A stretch of 32,000 nt of DNA. It comes from Candidatus Methanoperedens sp. Lineage in GTDB: Archaea > Halobacteriota > Methanosarcinia > Methanosarcinales > Methanoperedenaceae. Position numbers and translations under genes: made by a program. Below, piece by piece: positions 2,266-13,582 of this stretch. Under the pieces are notes generated by a model. That model ran no database searches. It saw only the letters and a program-made list of their open reading frames with translations, and was not told the DNA's origin. The stretch lies in contig JBGQBI010000001.1 of NCBI GenBank assembly GCA_041494705.1, positions 330,001 through 362,000 of the forward strand. The letters run 5' to 3'. Positions within the stretch are counted from its first letter, which is position 1. Each line of letters starts with the position of its first letter.

Positions 2266-2314
2266 TTTGACGAACCCCGTCTAAAAAGGAATGATAATCA
2301 ATGGGTTCATCAAA
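2266..2314 (+). repeat. Direct repeat copy 1 of the nusA translation-initiation region (hairpin arms + SD-like box + ATGGGTTCATCAAA)
   Basis: The 36-nt core GTCTAAAAAGGAATGATAATCAATGGGTTCATCAAA (2279-2314) is identical to 2402-2437. Flanking TTTGACGAACC matches TTTGATGAACC in copy 2. Period 124 nt. Confidence 0.9.
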
Positions 2315-2389: not shown

Positions 2390-2437
2390 TTTGATGAACC
2401 TGTCTAAAAAGGAATGATAATCAATGGGTTCATCAAA
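2390..2437 (+). repeat. Direct repeat copy 2, containing the real nusA start codon inside an 11-bp-stem hairpin
   Basis: 2390-2400 TTTGATGAACC is the perfect reverse complement of 2427-2437 GGTTCATCAAA. The 26-nt loop holds AAGGAATGATAATC (SD-like) and the ATG at 2424. Confidence 0.9.
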
Positions 2438-8023: not shown

Positions 8024-8527
8024 GTGAAAAACGAGAAAAGCGATTCAGCCCAAGTAACTATAGATTATATCACAGGCATCGGGATATTTCTACTGGCTGT
8101 TATTTTTGTATTCCAGTTCGTTTATGGTTTGTTCGTGCCCTTCCAGTCGGGCTCGGATAAGGCGACGCTTGCCGCGGACAGGGCAGGAACCGTACTTGTT
8201 GAACGTATGCTTCATGCAGATAAAGCAAGTGAGTTGAATGTCATAGACCAGGGCAAATTATATTATTTCAATAATTCGAGATTGAATTATTACAACCCGA
8301 CTAACTATAATGCCGCGCTTCGGGAAATCGGGCTGTTCAGCAATGAATCCGTTTTTGATATGAATGTAACGGTTGCCAATCTTACTAATCTAAACAAACC
8401 GATGAACCAGAGCGGACCTGCGCTCCCCGAAACCACCGATATCGGGCAGACTAAACGCCTTGTATTGATCGTAAATTCCTCCACGGGCTATAATGAAACT
8501 GCTATCCTTTCAGTGAGGGTCTGGTAA
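8024..8527 (+). CDS. Pilin-like protein 1 (class III signal peptide-like N-terminus, secreted glycoprotein candidate)
   Basis: 167 aa, GTG start. The N-terminus MKNEKSDSA/QVTIDYITGIGIFLLAVIFVFQFVYGLF is a short charged leader, then Ala-Gln, then about 25 hydrophobic residues. About 7 N-X-S/T sequons. 1-nt overlap with the next gene. From memory it resembles the haloarchaeal DUF7287-type N-terminus; not searched. Confidence 0.6.
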   Translation: MKNEKSDSAQVTIDYITGIGIFLLAVIFVFQFVYGLFVPFQSGSDKATLAADRAGTVLVERMLHADKASELNVIDQGKLYYFNNSRLNYYNPTNYNAALREIGLFSNESVFDMNVTVANLTNLNKPMNQSGPALPETTDIGQTKRLVLIVNSSTGYNETAILSVRVW

Positions 8528-9108
8528 TGTTTGATGATAAAGCCCAGATGCATACCCTGGAGGGCGTGGCTGCTGCTACAATAATGCTTCTTGTCATAGT
8601 TTATGCCATAGACGCGACCTCGATGACGCCGCTTACTTCTTCAACCGCAAACGTGCATGTGGAAACCGAGCTTCAGGTGCTCGGGCAGGATATTTTAGGG
8701 GGGCTGGATTATGCCGAGCCTGGATATAATTCAAAGCTTAAGAATGATGTATTGAGGTGGAATGGTAGTGAATATACCTGGAATGGAACAAATTATACAG
8801 ATAAGTTAAATACTGCAAATCCTCCACTTAACAATAACCTGACAAACATCACGAACGCTATTTTAGTCACGCAGGGCATTGCCCATAATGTGGAGCTGAC
8901 CTTTCTTGCGAACAATGGGACTACTTATACAACCCAGCGAATGATATACAACGGCGACCCCTCAGAAAACGCTGTGATTGTGTCAAGGAAAATCGTATTG
9001 CATAGCAGTGATAATCCAAATAAGAATAATACTCTATTAACTGATATCAGTCCCTCAACCGACCTATACAATATCGTTGATGTAAAACTTATTTTATGGA
9101 GAATGTGA
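8527..9108 (+). CDS. Pilin-like protein 2
   Basis: 193 aa. MFDDKA/QMHTLEGVAAATIMLLVIVYAI recalls the AQ-HTLE-type motif of DUF7288-like proteins (from memory). About 7 sequons. Coupled to both neighbours. Confidence 0.6.
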   Translation: MFDDKAQMHTLEGVAAATIMLLVIVYAIDATSMTPLTSSTANVHVETELQVLGQDILGGLDYAEPGYNSKLKNDVLRWNGSEYTWNGTNYTDKLNTANPPLNNNLTNITNAILVTQGIAHNVELTFLANNGTTYTTQRMIYNGDPSENAVIVSRKIVLHSSDNPNKNNTLLTDISPSTDLYNIVDVKLILWRM

Positions 9109-9863
9109 TGGGAATAATAAAAAACGAGGATGCTCAGTTTATGCTGCTTGCAGGTTTCATTATTGCTATCGGACTTGTAATAACCACGGTAATGCTCAAT
9201 AATATCATATTCGAAAGCAATATGGCAGGGGAAGCAGGAGGAGACCCCATAAAATATGATATAGTGAACCTGATGCGTATCAGCGGGGATGAAATGAAAA
9301 GCGCTTACAGGAATGCAACTGCACTTGGGGGAAATGATACACAAAAGAGAAGTAATTTTATCAATCAGACACAAAATTTCAGCGCAAACCTGCCCAAGCT
9401 GTACGCGCTGCATGGGGAGGGTGTGAATGTGAGCTGGGATATAAGCAACTGGAACACCACTACTCCACGCTATGCGAATTTCACAGATAACGGGACTGCA
9501 AATGGCGCAACGAACTGGACAGTTGTGGAAAGTGTTAATAATGCAACGATAGCCGTCAATATAACTGCAATAACATCCCCCTTTAATATAAGTATTACAA
9601 ACGCAACAAAAACTTGGCAAATAAACTTCACTTCAATAGGGAATCGCACAATTAATAATGCTGATATCAAGGCAAATATAACATCAGCATATAATATCTC
9701 ATTCGTAAACGGTGCAAATGCGTATGGCAACTACAGCATCAACGGCACAGCATCAGGCAGAGGCTTCATCCGCGCCCGCGATTACATCCTTTACTCAACA
9801 GTAACCCTTTCCACCAGCATTATGCGCGCCAGTATCACAATTCCTGTTTCAGTGCCGTGGTGA
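9096..9863 (+). CDS. Pilin-like protein 3, extremely sequon-rich
   Basis: 255 aa; the start may instead be ATG 9108, overlapping the upstream TGA by 1 nt. N-terminus ...IIKNEDA/QFMLLAGFIIAIGLVITTVMLNNIIF. About 19 N-X-S/T sequons by hand count. Confidence 0.6.
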   Translation: MENVMGIIKNEDAQFMLLAGFIIAIGLVITTVMLNNIIFESNMAGEAGGDPIKYDIVNLMRISGDEMKSAYRNATALGGNDTQKRSNFINQTQNFSANLPKLYALHGEGVNVSWDISNWNTTTPRYANFTDNGTANGATNWTVVESVNNATIAVNITAITSPFNISITNATKTWQINFTSIGNRTINNADIKANITSAYNISFVNGANAYGNYSINGTASGRGFIRARDYILYSTVTLSTSIMRASITIPVSVPW

Positions 9864-10336
9864 AACCTATGAATCAAAAAAGTCTCCTGAAAAATGAGGA
9901 TGCAGTATCTATTACGCTAGGTTTCATTCTCATTTTATTCATTACAGTGCTGGTTTTCTCTGCAACCATTCTTTCTTTTTATACGCTCACTTTGAACTCC
10001 CAGAAGGCGGCAATGAGGGAAAGTTTTGATATCCTGGGAAGCGGATTTGCTGCAAGAGTAAACTCCATGGATACCCTCGTAAATATAACCAAATCAAACG
10101 GGGGCGCTGTGAACAAACTGGAATACGATTTTTCAATTCCCGCTTCCATTGCAAACGAGGAATATGGCATCAATATAACCAGGGAAAGGATATTTCTGGA
10201 TGCGGAAAATGATGCAAAAGCCTGGATACCTTTCAATTCTTCCTATAACATAACTGAGCAGATATACAGCAATGCGCAGGACTATACACTGAGGTACGAT
10301 AACAACAATAATTCAATGAAAATTAAACAGCAATGA
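9857..10336 (+). CDS. Pilin-like protein 4
   Basis: 159 aa; alternative start ATG 9869. N-terminus ...LLKNEDA/VSITLGFILILFITVLVFSATILSF. ATGA overlap with the next gene. Confidence 0.6.
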   Translation: MVKPMNQKSLLKNEDAVSITLGFILILFITVLVFSATILSFYTLTLNSQKAAMRESFDILGSGFAARVNSMDTLVNITKSNGGAVNKLEYDFSIPASIANEEYGINITRERIFLDAENDAKAWIPFNSSYNITEQIYSNAQDYTLRYDNNNNSMKIKQQ

Positions 10337-11079
10337 AATCCATTAAACTTCTTTCCTCGGAAGATGCAGTCTCTGAAGTAGTGGACTTTGTAACAATCCT
10401 CGGGTTACTGGTGTTATCCATCGGGATTATAGGAGTGGCAGGCTACCCGATAATAAAGAATGCGCAGGAGGCAAACCACATAGAAAATACCAAGCAGAGT
10501 TTTATCGTGCTGGCAAATAACGTCAATAAAGTTGTGATTGGGCAGGCGCCTTCACAGAGCGTTGAGCTGAAGATGTACGGCGGGTCGCTGAGTGTCACGG
10601 GAAGCAGCACGATAAACATTACAGCAAATAATTCAGCCGGTCTAAGAATACCCATTTTAAATGATACTCAAATGCGCAGTATTGAAAGTGTTGTAGGGGA
10701 AACTGTCGTAGCTTATGAGGGCACAGGAGTATGGGCCAAGTATCCGAACGGCAACACGATACTTGTTTCAAAGCCGCTTATTACCAACCAGAGCAATGTG
10801 CTCGTTATTCCTATCGTAACCATAGGAGGGATTTCATCAACAGGCGGCAGCGGCATGAGCAGGGTTACGGCTAAAGGTGTGCCGCGTGTGGTTTTCTATA
10901 AGAATGTAAGCAATATCATTGTAACAATCAACAGCACTTACTCAAAGGGATGGGAGAATTATTTTGGTAATGTGATGGCATGGAGTTTCTGTATATCCGG
11001 CGAATGCACCGCAAAACTTGATACTAAGAACATTGATGTATATATATTGAACATCCAATTAGACACGGAGGTCGAATGA
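10333..11079 (+). CDS. Pilin-like protein 5 (archaeal type IV pilin N-terminal domain-like; paralogue of protein 6)
   Basis: 248 aa. MKSIKLLSSEDA/VSEVVDFVTILGLLVLSIGIIG resembles the PF07790/DUF1628-type N-terminus. Shares the blocks VVAYEGTGVWAKYPNGNT and LVIPIVTIGGISSTGGSG with protein 6. Confidence 0.7.
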   Translation: MKSIKLLSSEDAVSEVVDFVTILGLLVLSIGIIGVAGYPIIKNAQEANHIENTKQSFIVLANNVNKVVIGQAPSQSVELKMYGGSLSVTGSSTINITANNSAGLRIPILNDTQMRSIESVVGETVVAYEGTGVWAKYPNGNTILVSKPLITNQSNVLVIPIVTIGGISSTGGSGMSRVTAKGVPRVVFYKNVSNIIVTINSTYSKGWENYFGNVMAWSFCISGECTAKLDTKNIDVYILNIQLDTEVE

Positions 11080-12371
11080 AGCTCCTAAGCTCAGAAACTG
11101 CAGCGTCTGAAGTCATAGGTCATCTCCTTATCCTGTTCATTACTATTCTCGGAGTTGGCATGATAGCCCTGTACGGCGTGCCTGCGATTTACAGTCTTGA
11201 GGATATGGCAAATTCCAAGAATTCGGAACAGGCATTTACTGTCCTTGACTCGCGGGCGAGCAGGGTAACGCTGGGTGAGTCGCCGCTTCAGGTAACAAAT
11301 ATTAATCTCGGAGGGGGCACGGTGACGGTTGAGCCGAACAGCCCAAACAATCCGAGTTTCATGGTCGTAAATATCAATAATACTCCAATCACCGTGCCAA
11401 TGGGACGGGTAAAATATACTCTTGGGGACAGGATAGTCGCTTACGAGGGCGGCGGGGTATGGGCGCAATATCCGGGCGGGGGAACCGTTATGCTTTCTCC
11501 ACCTGAAATACATTATAACGGCTGGACATTAACACTCCCTGTAATTAATATCAATGGCAGTGCGTCTGTCGGGGGAAAGGGGACTGCGGTAGTTTCTTTC
11601 AAGAAAGTGGCAACAATAATACAGTATCCTAATGCAAGTATCGCAGGAAGGATGAACCCCGTTAACGGCAGTAAAACTGGAAAAGTCAATCTAAATATCA
11701 CGAGTGATTATTATAAGGCATGGGCTGACTATGCGAGAACCCTCAGTTATACAAATGTTTCAGTCAATGATAAGAATAAGACTACTATTATCGAGCTTGA
11801 AGTGATATCCCCGATGGGGACTTTTGTTTCCATACCCGGTAAGATAACTATGAGGGATATCAATACGAGCAACCCGGACCCTTTAATTAAATTTTATTTT
11901 AATATTTCATTTGGTTCAGGTGAAGGTGATAGAAAATGGGAAATTGAGGCAACAAATGGAAACCAAAAACTCGAAATAAAAATTGATAAAGACCATTCTG
12001 ACACTTATATCATAATCGAGTATGATAATGGATCTAAAGAAGAGAAATGGAATCATAAATTATATGATGGTAATCCGCCACCCACAATAAATATTGATCT
12101 CCTAAATCCCAGCATGAATCTTACATACCAAGGCGATGTAACTTCATGTACATGGTCACAACCTTGCAATACAGGAAGTACCAATTATAGTATCAATGAT
12201 ATAATACAGCATTACATCGTGCTTATGGGTTCGGATATTACCTTTGACACTACAGAAAGTGAAAAATTAAATAGACCCTCGTCGTCATATACACTGTTCT
12301 ACGACCCCGGTCCCGGCGCCCTCACCTACCTGCACATCACGGAGAACAGGGCTGACGTGGGGATAAGCTGA
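11076..12371 (+). CDS. Pilin-like protein 6 with a large extra C-terminal region
   Basis: 431 aa. MKLLSSETA/ASEVIGHLLILFITILGVGMIALYG. Blocks IVAYEGGGVWAQYPGGGT and TLPVININGSASVGGKG are paralogous to protein 5. About 190 additional residues are encoded by an AT-rich segment, followed by a GC-rich tail. Confidence 0.7.
   Translation: MKLLSSETAASEVIGHLLILFITILGVGMIALYGVPAIYSLEDMANSKNSEQAFTVLDSRASRVTLGESPLQVTNINLGGGTVTVEPNSPNNPSFMVVNINNTPITVPMGRVKYTLGDRIVAYEGGGVWAQYPGGGTVMLSPPEIHYNGWTLTLPVININGSASVGGKGTAVVSFKKVATIIQYPNASIAGRMNPVNGSKTGKVNLNITSDYYKAWADYARTLSYTNVSVNDKNKTTIIELEVISPMGTFVSIPGKITMRDINTSNPDPLIKFYFNISFGSGEGDRKWEIEATNGNQKLEIKIDKDHSDTYIIIEYDNGSKEEKWNHKLYDGNPPPTINIDLLNPSMNLTYQGDVTSCTWSQPCNTGSTNYSINDIIQHYIVLMGSDITFDTTESEKLNRPSSSYTLFYDPGPGALTYLHITENRADVGIS
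12315..12371 (+). repeat. Direct repeat A: last 18 codons plus stop of pilin-like gene 6
   Basis: 53/57 nt identical to 13011-13067. Both copies translate to GALTYLHITENRADVGIS*. Confidence 0.95.
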
Positions 12372-12446
12372 GCATCTGAAAACTCGCAGGAAGAAGAATA
12401 AGTTACCTTTATAAGAAAATGAACTATTGGAGGGTAGAATGAAAAA

Positions 12447-12748
12447 ATGAACAATAAACAGGAGATAACCTTAAGGCTAAATAATCTCAAACATACAATT
12501 CATGCTCTAAAAGAGGAGGCTTCAGACGGCATAACGGCTGAACAGCTTGAGAATGCTTTAAAATCAGGATTTGAAGTAATCGAAGAATATCCTGACGACC
12601 CAAGAGGAATAAGCTGTTTGTTGCTTTGTTCAATAGCTGGCAAGCCTGTCCATGTTGTCTGCGCCCCCACGAAGATGCGCTGATAATAATCACCGTCTAT
12701 ATGCCAGATGCATCAAAATGGACTGACAATTATAAAAAGAGGAAATAA
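12447..12748 (+). pseudogene. DUF4258-like toxin, disrupted by a frameshift in a C5 run
   Basis: Frame 0 (12447-12683) gives ...EVIEEYPDDPRGISCLLLCSIAGKPVHVVCAPTKMR*. The -1 frame from 12668 continues HEDALIIITVYMPDASKWTDNYKKRK* (stop 12746-12748). That matches my recollection of the C-terminus of DUF4258-family toxins that pair with YgiT/MqsA zinc-finger antitoxins. Confidence 0.6.
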
Positions 12749-12749
12749 A

Positions 12750-12992
12750 ATGAAAACATGCTATATGTGCAAGGGAGAAGTCAAATTATCGCTTGTGGAC
12801 GTGGAGGTTAAGGGCATTGTGGTAAAAGATATACCTGCTGAAGTCTGCACTCGATGCGGAGAGAAATATTTTGATACCAAAACAGCGTCGTTTATTCAGG
12901 ATATAACTGGCTGTATAAATGAGAAAAAGAGAGGATATATCGTAGATATAGTTAGTTCTGCCCGCAGCGTAAAAGATGCGATTGAAGCATAA
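12750..12992 (+). CDS. YgiT/MqsA-type zinc-finger antitoxin-like protein
   Basis: MKTCYMCKGEVKLSLVDVEVKGIVVKDIPAEVCTRCGEKYFD has CxxC...CxxC. ATG 12750 lies 1 nt after the repaired toxin stop. The ORF-track start at 12708 is probably an artefactual extension. Confidence 0.7.
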   Translation: MKTCYMCKGEVKLSLVDVEVKGIVVKDIPAEVCTRCGEKYFDTKTASFIQDITGCINEKKRGYIVDIVSSARSVKDAIEA

Positions 12993-13010
12993 ATTTAAAG
13001 CTGTGCTACA

Positions 13011-13067
13011 GGCGCCCTCACCTACCTGCACATCACAGAGAACAGGGCTGATGTGGGAATTAGCTGA
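13011..13067 (+). repeat. Direct repeat B: orphan copy of the pilin gene 3' end
   Basis: Differs from copy A only at 13037, 13052, 13058 and 13061, all third-codon positions. A stop lies 5 codons upstream in the same frame, so it is not part of a long ORF. Confidence 0.95.
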
Positions 13068-13099
13068 TTAAAAAAAGTATATCCGTTGCAACAAAAAAA

Positions 13100-13582
13100 T
13101 TACAGCGGCTCGGAAAACTCCGAGTCGAATTTACCGCTATTAATAGCTACAATTGCTTCCTTGGGTTTTAAGCCCTCAAAAGTAATCCCAAGCGGGACGC
13201 ATGAGCCAACAACCTCTTTGACAACATTCTTCAATGACTTTGCGAGGGTGTCGTTCTTCTTCATGTGCGCAATCTTTACTGCCTGTTTCACAGTAATATT
13301 GCCCACAGTCTTCGTGTTCGGCGTCCCTGAGCCTGTCTCGATCCCTGCCTCTTTCTTTATGAGTGCTGAAGTCGGCGGGGTTCCAACCTGTATCGTGAAT
13401 TGTTTCTTATCATCCACGATGACTTTAACCGGGACTTGCATTCCGCTGAACGCTTTTGTTTGCTCATTTATCTTATCTATAATCGCTTTTACATTTACGC
13501 CAAGCGGACCGAGTGAAGGACCAAGTGGCGGACCCGGGGTGGCTGAACCGCCGGAGACTAATGCTTCTACAACGCTTACCAT
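13100..13582 (-). CDS. rpl11: 50S ribosomal protein L11 (uL11)
   Basis: 160 aa, VSGGSATPGPPLGPSLGPLGVNVKAIIDKINEQT...GTPPTSALIKKEAG. Confidence 0.95.
   Translation of the reverse strand: MVSVVEALVSGGSATPGPPLGPSLGPLGVNVKAIIDKINEQTKAFSGMQVPVKVIVDDKKQFTIQVGTPPTSALIKKEAGIETGSGTPNTKTVGNITVKQAVKIAHMKKNDTLAKSLKNVVKEVVGSCVPLGITFEGLKPKEAIVAINSGKFDSEFSEPL

Follow-up and report, generated by a model that had tools for sequence, protein, structure and literature searches.

How a small toxin–antitoxin (TA) module came to stand between two copies of the end of one protein-coding gene, copies that differ at silent positions only, is the question raised by the 32-kb stretch of Candidatus Methanoperedens DNA analysed here (the window). 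We conclude that this locus belongs, as one unit, to a cassette array of a kind not described before in methane-oxidising Methanoperedens, and that the last 18 codons plus the stop codon of a pilin-like gene (the target gene; Table 1) are its recombination site. No published account of such arrays in Methanoperedens was found in the literature searched.

The duplicated gene end and the module between its copies

The upstream copy (A) and the downstream copy (B) form a 57-nt direct repeat, the longest in the window, in which 53 of the 57 bases are identical. Both copies translate to GALTYLHITENRADVGIS*, copy A in frame with the target gene, and the four mismatches (12341/13037 G/A, 12356/13052 C/T, 12362/13058 G/A and 12365/13061 A/T) all fall on third codon positions and are silent; as only 24% of all conceivable single-base changes here would be synonymous, four out of four would be expected by chance with a probability of ~0.003. 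A 900-bp segment across both copies is identical at every base in two further assemblies, one from JGI (L017) and one from Logan for another run (L018), and since the repeat structure is the same in three assemblies an assembly artefact is rejected. An earlier sequence-only reading of this DNA had described the repeat, its common peptide and its silent mismatches, together with the 18 nt that separate the antitoxin stop from copy B and the odd composition of positions 12301–12360 (41/60 G+C vs 44% in the whole window; the cassette has 39%), and all of this was reproduced by our analysis.

The 18 tail codons have a GC3 of 0.89 vs 0.41 in the remainder of the gene, and the tail region shows the highest GC3 (17/18) among 8169 sliding 18-codon segments from the 36 genes of the window. 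The tail also ranks first within the gene in synonymous-codon identity (0.80 vs a mean of 0.61), but with a second 18-codon segment at 0.79 this measure was indecisive as a sign of nucleotide-level constraint. Selection for a recognition sequence may account for the extreme GC3 of the tail, and also for the fixed orientation of the copies and the restriction of the arrays to one site. At the protein level, the homologues of the target gene (n = 404) have a conserved C-terminal tail (..LTYLHITENRADVGIS), and the DUF7308 middle domain is hypervariable and flanked by the conserved ends of the protein. Short natural forms (P0093 and P0106) correspond to residues 1–243 joined to residues 413–431 of the target protein.

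Table 1. Coordinates of the features at the cassette locus, with the basis or reading of each.
Feature	Position	Strand	Basis or reading
Five upstream genes of an archaeal type IV pilin-like operon (DUF7287, DUF7288, DUF7261-like, DUF7266, DUF7289)	8024..11079	+	Pfam matches
Target gene, 431 aa, DUF7289 core with variable DUF7308 insert	11076..12371	+	Pfam
Repeat copy A	12315..12371	+	Present functional gene end, attL-like
Cassette alpha, 639 bp, self-contained type II TA module	12372..13010	+	Four-way alignment
DUF4258 toxin gene, inactivated	12447..12748	+	Frame-repaired protein vs PF14076, 2e-20
YgiT-type zinc-finger antitoxin, 80 aa, intact	12750..12992	+	TIGR03831, 6.7e-9
Cassette right-end extension	12993..13010	+	Related right ends in L021
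Repeat copy B	13011..13067	+	Apparent displaced resident gene tail, attR-like, no longer translated
A-rich spacer from gene stop to convergent L11 gene, ancestral	13068..13099	.	Comparison with empty sites
Ribosomal protein L11 gene, bounding the insertion site downstream in this lineage	13100..13582	-	tblastn/ORF analysis; Pfam annotation of L017

The cassette between the copies (alpha) contains a broken DUF4258 toxin gene and a YgiT antitoxin gene only, with no integrase of its own. These two adjacent genes form a type II TA pair as predicted from sequence, the toxin being a pseudogene; the earlier designation as a TA cassette thus holds for the antitoxin, which is intact and has a homologue (P0121, 94% identical) named YgiT-type zinc finger protein, but not for a working toxin. 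Relative to the homologous cassettes of L005, L028 and L021, all of which encode intact 100-aa toxins, a single nucleotide has been deleted at ~12667/12668, so that the toxin ORF (12447–12683) stops early and the rest of the C-terminal codons (12665–12748) are in another frame; the frameshift is repeated in L017 and L018. At the nucleotide level, the cassette is 95.8% identical to its counterpart in L005, 94.2% in L028 and 87% in L021, and the same repeat flanks it in each. The left end (GCATCTGAAAAC), which adjoins copy A, is also present after repeat 2 of L005, and a conserved TATA-like TTTATAA (12408–12414) probably acts as a promoter element. The right-end extension appears to be a shortened relic of the gene sequence upstream of the core that moves with the cassette, longer right ends in L005 and L028 being readable in frame as ..STMLLNYTT... 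The weak similarity previously suspected upstream of the repeat (CTGTGCTAC) is real, although it is linked to the cassette, since the L021 copy of alpha has a related right end.

Arrays, empty sites and the origin of the two copies

The gene tail recurs two to six times 3′ of the orthologous DUF7289/DUF7308 gene in at least seven other Methanoperedens genomes, always in the orientation of the gene (on the gene strand, six copies in L021, five in L005, four in both L022 and L028, three in L034, and two in L024 and in the window). Each interval holds one type II TA cassette (DUF4258 with YgiT, PIN, BrnT, TumE or MazE-like); the same pilin-like operon lies upstream of every array, and the architecture is consistent in eight genomes from different projects. 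Seven cassette families are common to several arrays and their order differs between arrays. Cassettes are 91–98% identical where the flanking operon is 78–90% identical, and those of L028 reach 92%, 94% and 80–84% where the flanks are 64–68% identical. Loci L034 and L028, with flanks 94–95% identical, differ by exactly one cassette and one repeat, the junction being inside the repeat unit. Judged from these alignments, recombination at copies of the last 57 bases of the gene appears to bring small TA modules in, rearrange them and remove them.

In about ten genomes the site is empty: the gene stop is followed by an A-rich spacer of 20–40 nt and then by the L11 stop. The same A-rich spacer lies directly 3′ of the gene stop in the empty sites L002–L004, L006–L008, L011 and L014, and also after the last repeat of the L021 array. 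A different downstream neighbour is found in L024 and in L028/L034, where the arrays are still directly 3′ of the target gene; arrays thus track the target gene even without L11, which indicates that the site matters and not the neighbourhood. In all fetched loci and in a metagenome scan, the repeat motif occurs solely at the end of the target gene or in arrays directly 3′ of it. The scan itself, with a degenerate 38-nt pattern, yielded seven single-copy gene ends only, most arrays having been located by protein look-ups.

Copy B and its downstream flank match the empty-site junction, and the copy B variants GGA ATT and ACA are alleles of the gene ends in L011/L015 and L001. The 3′ part of copy A adjoins the cassette and carries alleles differing from those of copy B. 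On these alignments, copy B with its downstream flank would be the resident gene end and most of copy A would have been imported with the cassette; the 5′ side of copy A and the sequence upstream of it seem to be resident, the cassette-borne allele being present from repeat position 27 at the latest. In the proposal of the sequence-only reading, both copies go back to functional gene ends, and the cassette came by recombination with a homologous locus that had a gene end of its own, not by in situ duplication followed by decay; that reading had also pointed to empty sites in relatives as the place to look. This proposal is upheld by the presence of the same repeat-flanked cassette in L005, L028 and L021, by the empty sites and by the match of the copy B alleles to the gene ends of other genomes.

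A second array family (L019 and L037), at a paralogous locus, has as its boundary an unrelated terminator-like repeat of ~40–80 nt, and no cassettes common to the two boundary families were found; the existence of two unrelated boundary sequences speaks against a single sequence-specific enzyme. Two loci unrelated to the arrays (L032 and L033) contain more distant DUF4258/YgiT pairs, and these are not flanked by direct repeats. Elsewhere in the window, at 2276–2437, there is a second small case of a gene-boundary sequence duplicated around an insert.

Exchange within the repeat and the agent behind it

The two sides of a repeat follow different cassettes: its 3′ end (AGT or AGC, TAA or TGA) co-varies with the cassette downstream and its upstream extension with the one upstream, which places the crossover inside the site. 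Across genomes, the upstream extensions of internal repeats are cassette-linked, and hosts of type 1 (L005) have foreign extensions, of type 2. At the window locus, the variants of copy B are resident ones from repeat position 27 on, and repeat 4 of L022 changes from standard to L028 type somewhere within positions 33–42. Most of the core accompanies the cassette downstream of it, both in the window and in L028 vs L034, and the switch points differ (before 27; 33–42), unlike in integrons, where the crossover is fixed in the R′ box and the entire site goes with the upstream cassette; the position of the crossover therefore seems to vary between events. Few crossover points were identified, and gene conversion at a later stage may have obscured their positions. 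All repeat copies of L028 and L034 have the tail variant of their own lineage, and some cores appear to have been homogenised to the resident tail by concerted evolution. Internal copies show 31 synonymous vs 22 non-synonymous differences (24% synonymous expected if neutral), with damage in some of them (stop loss, Y>C and L>Q). A minimal core of ~44 nt is conserved in all copies and contains a 7-nt inverted pair, CACATCA..TGATGTG.

The sequence-only reading had likened the locus to an integrative element lacking its integrase, and this holds: no recombinase or transposase domain was found in the sizeable ORFs of the window, nor any such domain among the called genes within 8–10 kb of seven arrays (including L017, L021, L022, L024, L028 and L034). 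An attC-like hairpin was rejected, as 12 folds (extension plus core, both strands) gave z values of −1.4 to +1.1 vs shuffles, with no excess stability; the pairings formed were short only (CTCAAC/GTTGAG in some copies, and CACATCA/TGATGTG), the outer one being missing from the window copies. Positions 12000–13300 had no match in Rfam, and no bacterial-type terminator was detected at 12250–13150 by a scan that is ill-suited to archaea. A tRNA target was likewise rejected: there is no tRNA in the window, and the tRNA-Glu located 37 nt beyond the L028 array is outside the repeat. Viral contigs gave no match to the repeat pattern or to the alpha toxin or beta PIN proteins, and PLSDB plasmids none to an alpha-cassette query from L005 (repeat 2, cassette and repeat 3).

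The two 57-nt copies probably mark the two ends, left and right, at which a small mobile TA cassette joins the chromosome, within an array built by Campbell-type exchange. The last 18 codons and stop of the gene, highly conserved and rich in G/C-ending codons, would act as a shared attachment or homology site, and a cassette unit would comprise a left end of its own, a TA pair with its own promoter and a right end that bears the gene-sequence relic, followed by a site copy. A putative circular form, or a looped-out cassette, would recombine with the resident tail through one Campbell-type crossover within the site; the product would have an intact reading frame restored through copy A, and the resident tail would be moved downstream as the silent copy B. 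The reverse reaction between the two copies would delete the cassette, unequal exchange between arrays would stack and reorder cassettes, and conversion would keep the copies like the resident tail. Because every copy would be, or would recently have been, a functional gene end of some lineage, their differences would mostly be pre-existing synonymous alleles, hence the four silent mismatches out of four. The TA-only content suggests a filter based on addiction, in which modules of other kinds are lost by deletion between the direct repeats. As catalyst we lean, with modest confidence, towards general homologous recombination (RadA-type) on 44–93 nt of shared sequence as the most likely candidate. 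Single-crossover integration through only 44–57 bp of homology is inefficient in most organisms, which counts against a Campbell-type event.

The main alternative enzyme is a dedicated recombinase encoded elsewhere. A site-specific enzyme of this sort (integron-integrase-like, Xer-like or another tyrosine or serine recombinase), acting in trans on the gene tail as for CALIN or IMEX/pdif modules, is conceivable but not what we expect. It would agree with arrays that occur at the target site only and copies that all share one orientation, with the ~44-nt core and its inverted pair in all copies, and with the extreme GC3 and top synonymous-codon identity of the tail; moreover, integrons are known from Archaea, and CALIN-type arrays with no integrase beside them are common (PMC9668308). 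Against it stand the lack of any such gene in the window or within 8–10 kb of seven arrays, the lack of a stable hairpin, crossover positions that appear to differ between events, the homogenisation of the L028/L034 cores to the resident tail, which is unexpected from fixed-point exchange, the second array type with its unrelated boundary, and the other 18-codon segment of nearly equal synonymous identity (0.79). It is similarly doubtful that the locus is a dedicated cassette-capture platform, an integron analogue in which the coding 3′ end of a surface-protein gene serves as universal site for an unlinked recombinase, DNA-level selection explains the GC3, and TA or defence cassettes are stored and exchanged across species. 

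Insertion with long target duplication, where the entry of each cassette would have made an in situ duplicate of 57–93 bp from the gene end of the recipient itself, seems unlikely. This process was described for restriction–modification units in Helicobacter, Haemophilus and Neisseria and is recognised by an addiction-type unit, direct repeats of > 30 bp that are single-copy in empty alleles, and no mobility genes (PMC2853133). The window locus has the corresponding 57-nt repeats, empty sites and absence of mobility genes, the window contains the further small boundary duplication noted above, and the L028/L034 repeats all carry the resident tail variant, although conversion explains the latter equally well. 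However, in situ duplication with neutral decay of copy B does not predict window copies that differ, always silently, by alleles of other genomes; nor does it lead one to expect cassette-linked extensions of internal repeats, foreign type-2 sequence in the type-1 host L005 or the mosaic core of L022 repeat 4. It is very improbable that the downstream copies are silent donors for gene conversion of the pilin-like C-terminus, in the logic of antigenic variation. The hypervariable DUF7308 domain between conserved ends and the conversion that does occur between copies would fit such a role, which the sequence-only reading had offered as an alternative, but the 18 residues encoded by the copies are those of the gene end and so offer no variation, some copies are damaged, none contains any of the variable domain, and their number tracks that of the TA cassettes. 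An assembly artefact, or a generic genome-wide repeat without a link to the gene, can practically be dismissed: contigs L001 and L020 do end shortly past the gene end, as repeats often cause, but three assemblies are identical, eight genomes are consistent and the motif is confined to the gene end or the arrays directly downstream.

Significance and relation to known systems

The arrays point to a route by which TA modules may pass between archaeal chromosomes without an element-encoded integrase or transposase, and to a natural, gene-preserving landing pad in a core translation-gene neighbourhood of an environmentally important, not yet genetically tractable methane oxidiser. The 57-nt site is a possible insertion target for genetic tools. 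The locus would also be a concrete case in which silent-only divergence of a repeat stems from allele import and not from selection on a silent copy. The arrays would represent a new class of cassette platform should a dedicated recombinase exist; should homologous recombination be enough, a cassette array could be seeded by any short, highly conserved sequence beside a variable locus.

Like integrons and CALINs, the Methanoperedens loci are ordered arrays of 0.4–0.9 kb cassettes in fixed orientation, each with one conserved site on its 3′ side, with the first site at a fixed chromosomal anchor, TA modules prominent, the same cassettes in differing orders between genomes and repeats that are homogeneous within a lineage (compare the VCRs of Vibrio). 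They differ in having no IntI nearby, although it may be absent from CALINs too, and in a site that is the coding 3′ end of a host gene, whereas the integron attC is non-coding with a stable imperfect hairpin (here z is ~0); in addition, the cassettes have promoter-like elements of their own and every cassette seen is a TA module. Cores that are mosaic or converted point to homology-driven exchange, again unlike integrons.

Elements that restore the 3′ end of their target (tRNA-targeting elements; phage 21 and e14 at icd of E. coli) carry a surrogate 3′ end, so that the target gene stays intact. The same features were found here, namely direct repeats of the gene end flanking the insert, an intact gene and empty sites in relatives, and in both cases the displaced original end stays downstream and the two ends differ mainly at silent sites; the Methanoperedens cassette, in contrast, is only ~0.7 kb, has no integrase and occurs as units stacked in series and shuffled. 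The pdif modules of Acinetobacter and IMEX, which use host Xer, and the minimal mobile elements of Neisseria are moved by host machinery or homologous recombination. These too are small modules, often of TA or resistance genes, without their own recombinase and bounded by repeated sites or conserved flanks, but the Methanoperedens repeats are direct and coding, and their location is chromosomal and archaeal. A dif-like site has two inverted arms of ~11 nt around a 6-nt spacer; no such 11-6-11 site is present here, the sole inverted pair in the core being of 7 nt with a 13-nt gap.

With the long target duplication of restriction–modification units (Nobusato/Furuta/Kobayashi; PMC2853133), the arrays share an addiction-type unit, the absence of a mobility gene, repeats of > 30 bp and sites that are polymorphic between relatives. 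The insertions in Methanoperedens nevertheless recur at one site (up to six repeats), in an archaeal host and with TA cargo, and since the window copies are different alleles at least one was probably imported, unlike in that process. Three ideas usually kept apart, integron-like arrays, long target duplication and 3′-end-restoring integration, are thereby linked at a single gene end.

The repeated gene end and its surroundings

The window belongs to the core chromosome of a Candidatus Methanoperedens species, its nearest relative being L001 (a homologous locus from another assembly; 93% protein identity). It runs from RNA polymerase A'/A'', L30e, NusA, S12, S7, EF-2, EF-1alpha and S10 to six pilin-like genes (DUF7287, DUF7288, DUF7261-like, DUF7266, DUF7289 and DUF7289+DUF7308), followed by toxin-antitoxin (TA) cassette alpha, the convergent L11, Spt5 and SecE and, farther along, a rhomboid protease, multihaem cytochromes, TtuA, PurD, TBP and Fpo subunits. 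Domain analysis found the 32-kb window free of integrase, transposase and any further recombinase domains, bearing out the absence of an integrase noted in the sequence-only reading.

The end of the pilin-like gene (copy A) and the stretch behind the cassette (copy B) form the longest direct repeat of the window (57 nt, 53/57 identity). Copy A is in frame with its gene, and both copies translate to GALTYLHITENRADVGIS followed by the stop. Direct comparison reproduced the coordinates and identity of this duplication as first described, the placement of all four differences at silent third-codon positions, the 18 nt between the antitoxin stop and copy B, and the G+C content of 12301-12360 (41/60). 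Since only 24% of all single-nucleotide changes that could occur here would be synonymous, four silent differences out of four have a chance of ~0.003. The 900 bp covering both copies are identical in two further assemblies (L017, JGI; L018, Logan), so the repeat pair is not the assembly artefact against which the earlier reading had advised a check. Both assemblies also carry the frameshift that makes the toxin a pseudogene, a 1-nt deletion at ~12667/12668 in a C-run relative to three intact homologous cassettes; the antitoxin is intact.

Elsewhere in the window, the start of a NusA-like gene is duplicated (39 nt, 97% identical) around ~84 nt that include a GGGGTATGC..GCATACCCC hairpin, and in L023 the two copies adjoin without this insert. 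Here, too, a short insert is flanked by a duplicated gene boundary.

Coordinates of features in the window and in homologous loci (L) from other assemblies
Locus	Position	Strand	Feature
Window	2276-2314, 2399-2437		Duplicated ribosome-binding region and first codons of NusA-like gene
Window	11076-12371		Pilin-like gene
Window	12315-12371		Copy A
Window	12372-13010	+	Cassette alpha (DUF4258 toxin, YgiT-type zinc-finger antitoxin)
Window	12447-12748		DUF4258 toxin pseudogene
Window	13011-13067		Copy B
L005	11462-11877		Zeta, last cassette, truncated
L013	8367-8436		Extra non-coding sequence
L019	11402-12825		Second boundary family
L021	11006-12523		Fused double cassette beta+eta
L022	9399-10624		Fused double cassette, PIN/AF2212-like pair and part of beta
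L022	10682-11104		Epsilon, internal deletion
L024	5649-6066		Gamma (TumE cassette), internal deletion
L028	8378-8451	opposite	tRNA-Glu
L037	9402-10962		Second boundary family

Cassette arrays behind the orthologous gene

The orthologous pilin-like gene was retrieved from other genomes and its downstream sequence checked for tail copies; the window locus proved to be a single unit of an array that recurs among them. Six tail copies were found in L021, five in L005, four each in L022 and L028, three in L034 and two in L024, while in L001 a cassette start is seen before the contig ends. In all arrays the copies lie on the gene strand, and each interval between them holds a type II TA module of small size (DUF4258+YgiT, PIN with a small partner, BrnT, TumE or MazE/AbrB-like). 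The operon of L024 and of L028/L034 lies in other chromosomal contexts with the array still 3' of the gene, so it is the gene tail, not the L11 spacer, that the arrays accompany. Empty sites, which the sequence-only reading had proposed to seek, are present in ~10 genomes, where an A-rich spacer of 20-40 nt and then the L11 stop come immediately after the stop codon. In L013, ~70 nt of additional non-coding sequence separate the gene stop from the usual A-rich spacer; cassette and second repeat are both missing, and the stretch may be either a scar or some small insert. The tRNA-Glu found 37 nt past the last repeat of L028 was rejected as a repeat component, the gene lying outside the repeat.

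All-against-all comparison grouped the cassettes into seven shared families (alpha to eta) whose order differs between arrays (e.g. epsilon-alpha-gamma-beta-zeta in L005; alpha-zeta-beta+eta-delta-gamma in L021; beta-gamma-alpha in L028). Identity is consistently higher in the cassettes than in the operon beside them: beta is 96.7% identical between L005 and L024 (flanks 78-86%), alpha 95.8% between the window and L005 (flanks 85-90%), and in L028 beta (92%), alpha (94%) and gamma (80-84%) resemble their counterparts despite flanks of only 64-68%. L034 and L028, with flanks 94-95% identical, are distinguished by precisely one alpha cassette and one repeat, the indel junction lying inside the repeat unit. 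The cassettes are thus mobile. Decay is seen in L022 epsilon, where an internal deletion removed the BrnT start, in L024 gamma, and in L005 zeta, which lacks a terminal repeat and the PIN toxin present in L021 zeta; such repeated toxin inactivation, including the window frameshift, is consistent with a selfish life cycle. Both fused double cassettes (L021, L022) have lost the intervening repeat.

Origin of the copies and mode of exchange

Internal copies reach 25-36 nt farther upstream than the 57-nt core, reading in frame as ..STMLLNYTT(I)GALTY... A second allelic class of the gene, type 2 (e.g. homologous proteins P0022, P0023, P0026 and P0029), has this extension as its tail, the genes of the window and L005 being type 1 (..YTLFYDPGPGALTY..). 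In different genomes the extension remains linked to the cassette upstream of it, one example being beta's CTATGCTCYCCTCAAC in L005, L022, L024, L028 and L034. The last repeat bases stay with the downstream cassette, AGT TAA preceding gamma and delta in most arrays and AGC TAA in L021; these cassettes start with GGCGCAAAA, or with GGTGTAAAA in L024 and GTAGCAAAA in L028/L034. Exchange therefore takes place within the repeat, in the manner of a Campbell-type or integron-type reaction.

Behind copy B comes the spacer common to all empty sites, and this copy carries GGA ATT, as in the empty sites L011/L015, and ACA, as in L001; copy A carries other alleles and is followed by the cassette left end. 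Copy B would thus be the displaced resident tail, which bears on the earlier question of which copy is ancestral, and most of copy A probably arrived with the cassette, the alleles switching on the 5' side of position 27 in the repeat. A cassette right end in shortened form makes up the 18 nt preceding copy B, with a related end on the alpha cassette of L021. At least one window copy would have been imported, in line with the original proposal that the cassette came by recombination with its own gene-end copy rather than by in-situ duplication.

Across 31 copies, substitutions numbered 45 synonymous and 16 non-synonymous in gene ends and 31 and 22 in internal copies, against a neutral expectation of only 24% synonymous. 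Given this excess, together with stop loss, Y>C and L>Q in internal copies, the latter carry variation handed down from functional gene ends, with some decay in place. Natural short forms (P0093 and P0106, 261-266 aa) join residues 1-243 directly to 413-431 without the entire DUF7308 domain (window residues 244-412), so that the tail belongs to the DUF7289 core; it is structurally important, with DUF7308 a hypervariable insert between conserved ends. Among homologues P0019, P0061, P0077, P0082, P0098 and P0109, one has the tail in a shifted frame (..DYDPALALSLSCTSRRTGLMWG) and several more reach lengths of 590-700 aa; sequencing errors, read-through or enlarged variable domains may account for them. 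By hand count from tail sequences, GC3 of the tail is lower in distant lineages (~0.39 in L008, ~0.61 in L028).

A dedicated site-specific enzyme, integron-like or other, is kept alive as mover of the cassettes by the strict location and orientation of the arrays and by the tail itself. In the window, 16 of its 18 codons (12315-12368) end in G or C, against 0.41 in the rest of the gene, making it the most extreme GC3 stretch of 8169 sliding windows over 36 genes; its synonymous-codon identity among orthologues is the highest (0.80, mean 0.61), though not uniquely so (another window, 0.79). The GC3 could also be explained by GC-biased conversion at a recombination hotspot. Against an enzyme, no recombinase was found within 8-10 kb of the arrays or in the window, and extension plus core show no folding beyond that of shuffled controls for both strands (z -1.4 to +1.1). 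The switch point also varies between events: in L022 repeat 4 the change from a standard 5' half to a 3' half of L028 type falls between positions 33 and 42. In L028/L034 every copy has the variant of its own lineage (GALSYLHISDNRADVTIS) though the cassettes are common to other lineages, which argues for conversion to the resident sequence. Finally, L019 and L037 represent another boundary family, built on like array logic, in a paralogous pilin-like operon adjoining PilB/PilC genes. Their boundary is an unrelated terminator-like repeat of ~40-80 nt (AAAAAAAGGAAAATTGCCCCCCTGAAAAAAGGAAAGGGG) starting ~25 nt past the gene stop, and their TA and other small cassettes (ParE and BrnT pairs in L019; MJ0235-like and others in L037) include none in common with the tail-repeat arrays. 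On these grounds we favour homology-driven exchange as the probable mechanism. As cassettes between direct repeats are readily deleted, enrichment would be expected there for modules whose loss is penalized.

Relation to known systems

A search of a literature collection found no description of such arrays; integrons have been reported in archaea, in a paper from which Methanoperedens is absent (PMC9668308). The closest architecture is that of chromosomal integron arrays or CALINs, from which the present arrays differ in lacking IntI, attC structure and a fixed crossover. The locus fits the description of an insertion with long target duplication (PMC2853133), but differs in that at least one window copy was probably imported, not duplicated in place. 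Although the cassette has no integrase, its logic is that of elements restoring the 3' end of their target gene, as the sequence-only reading had recognized.
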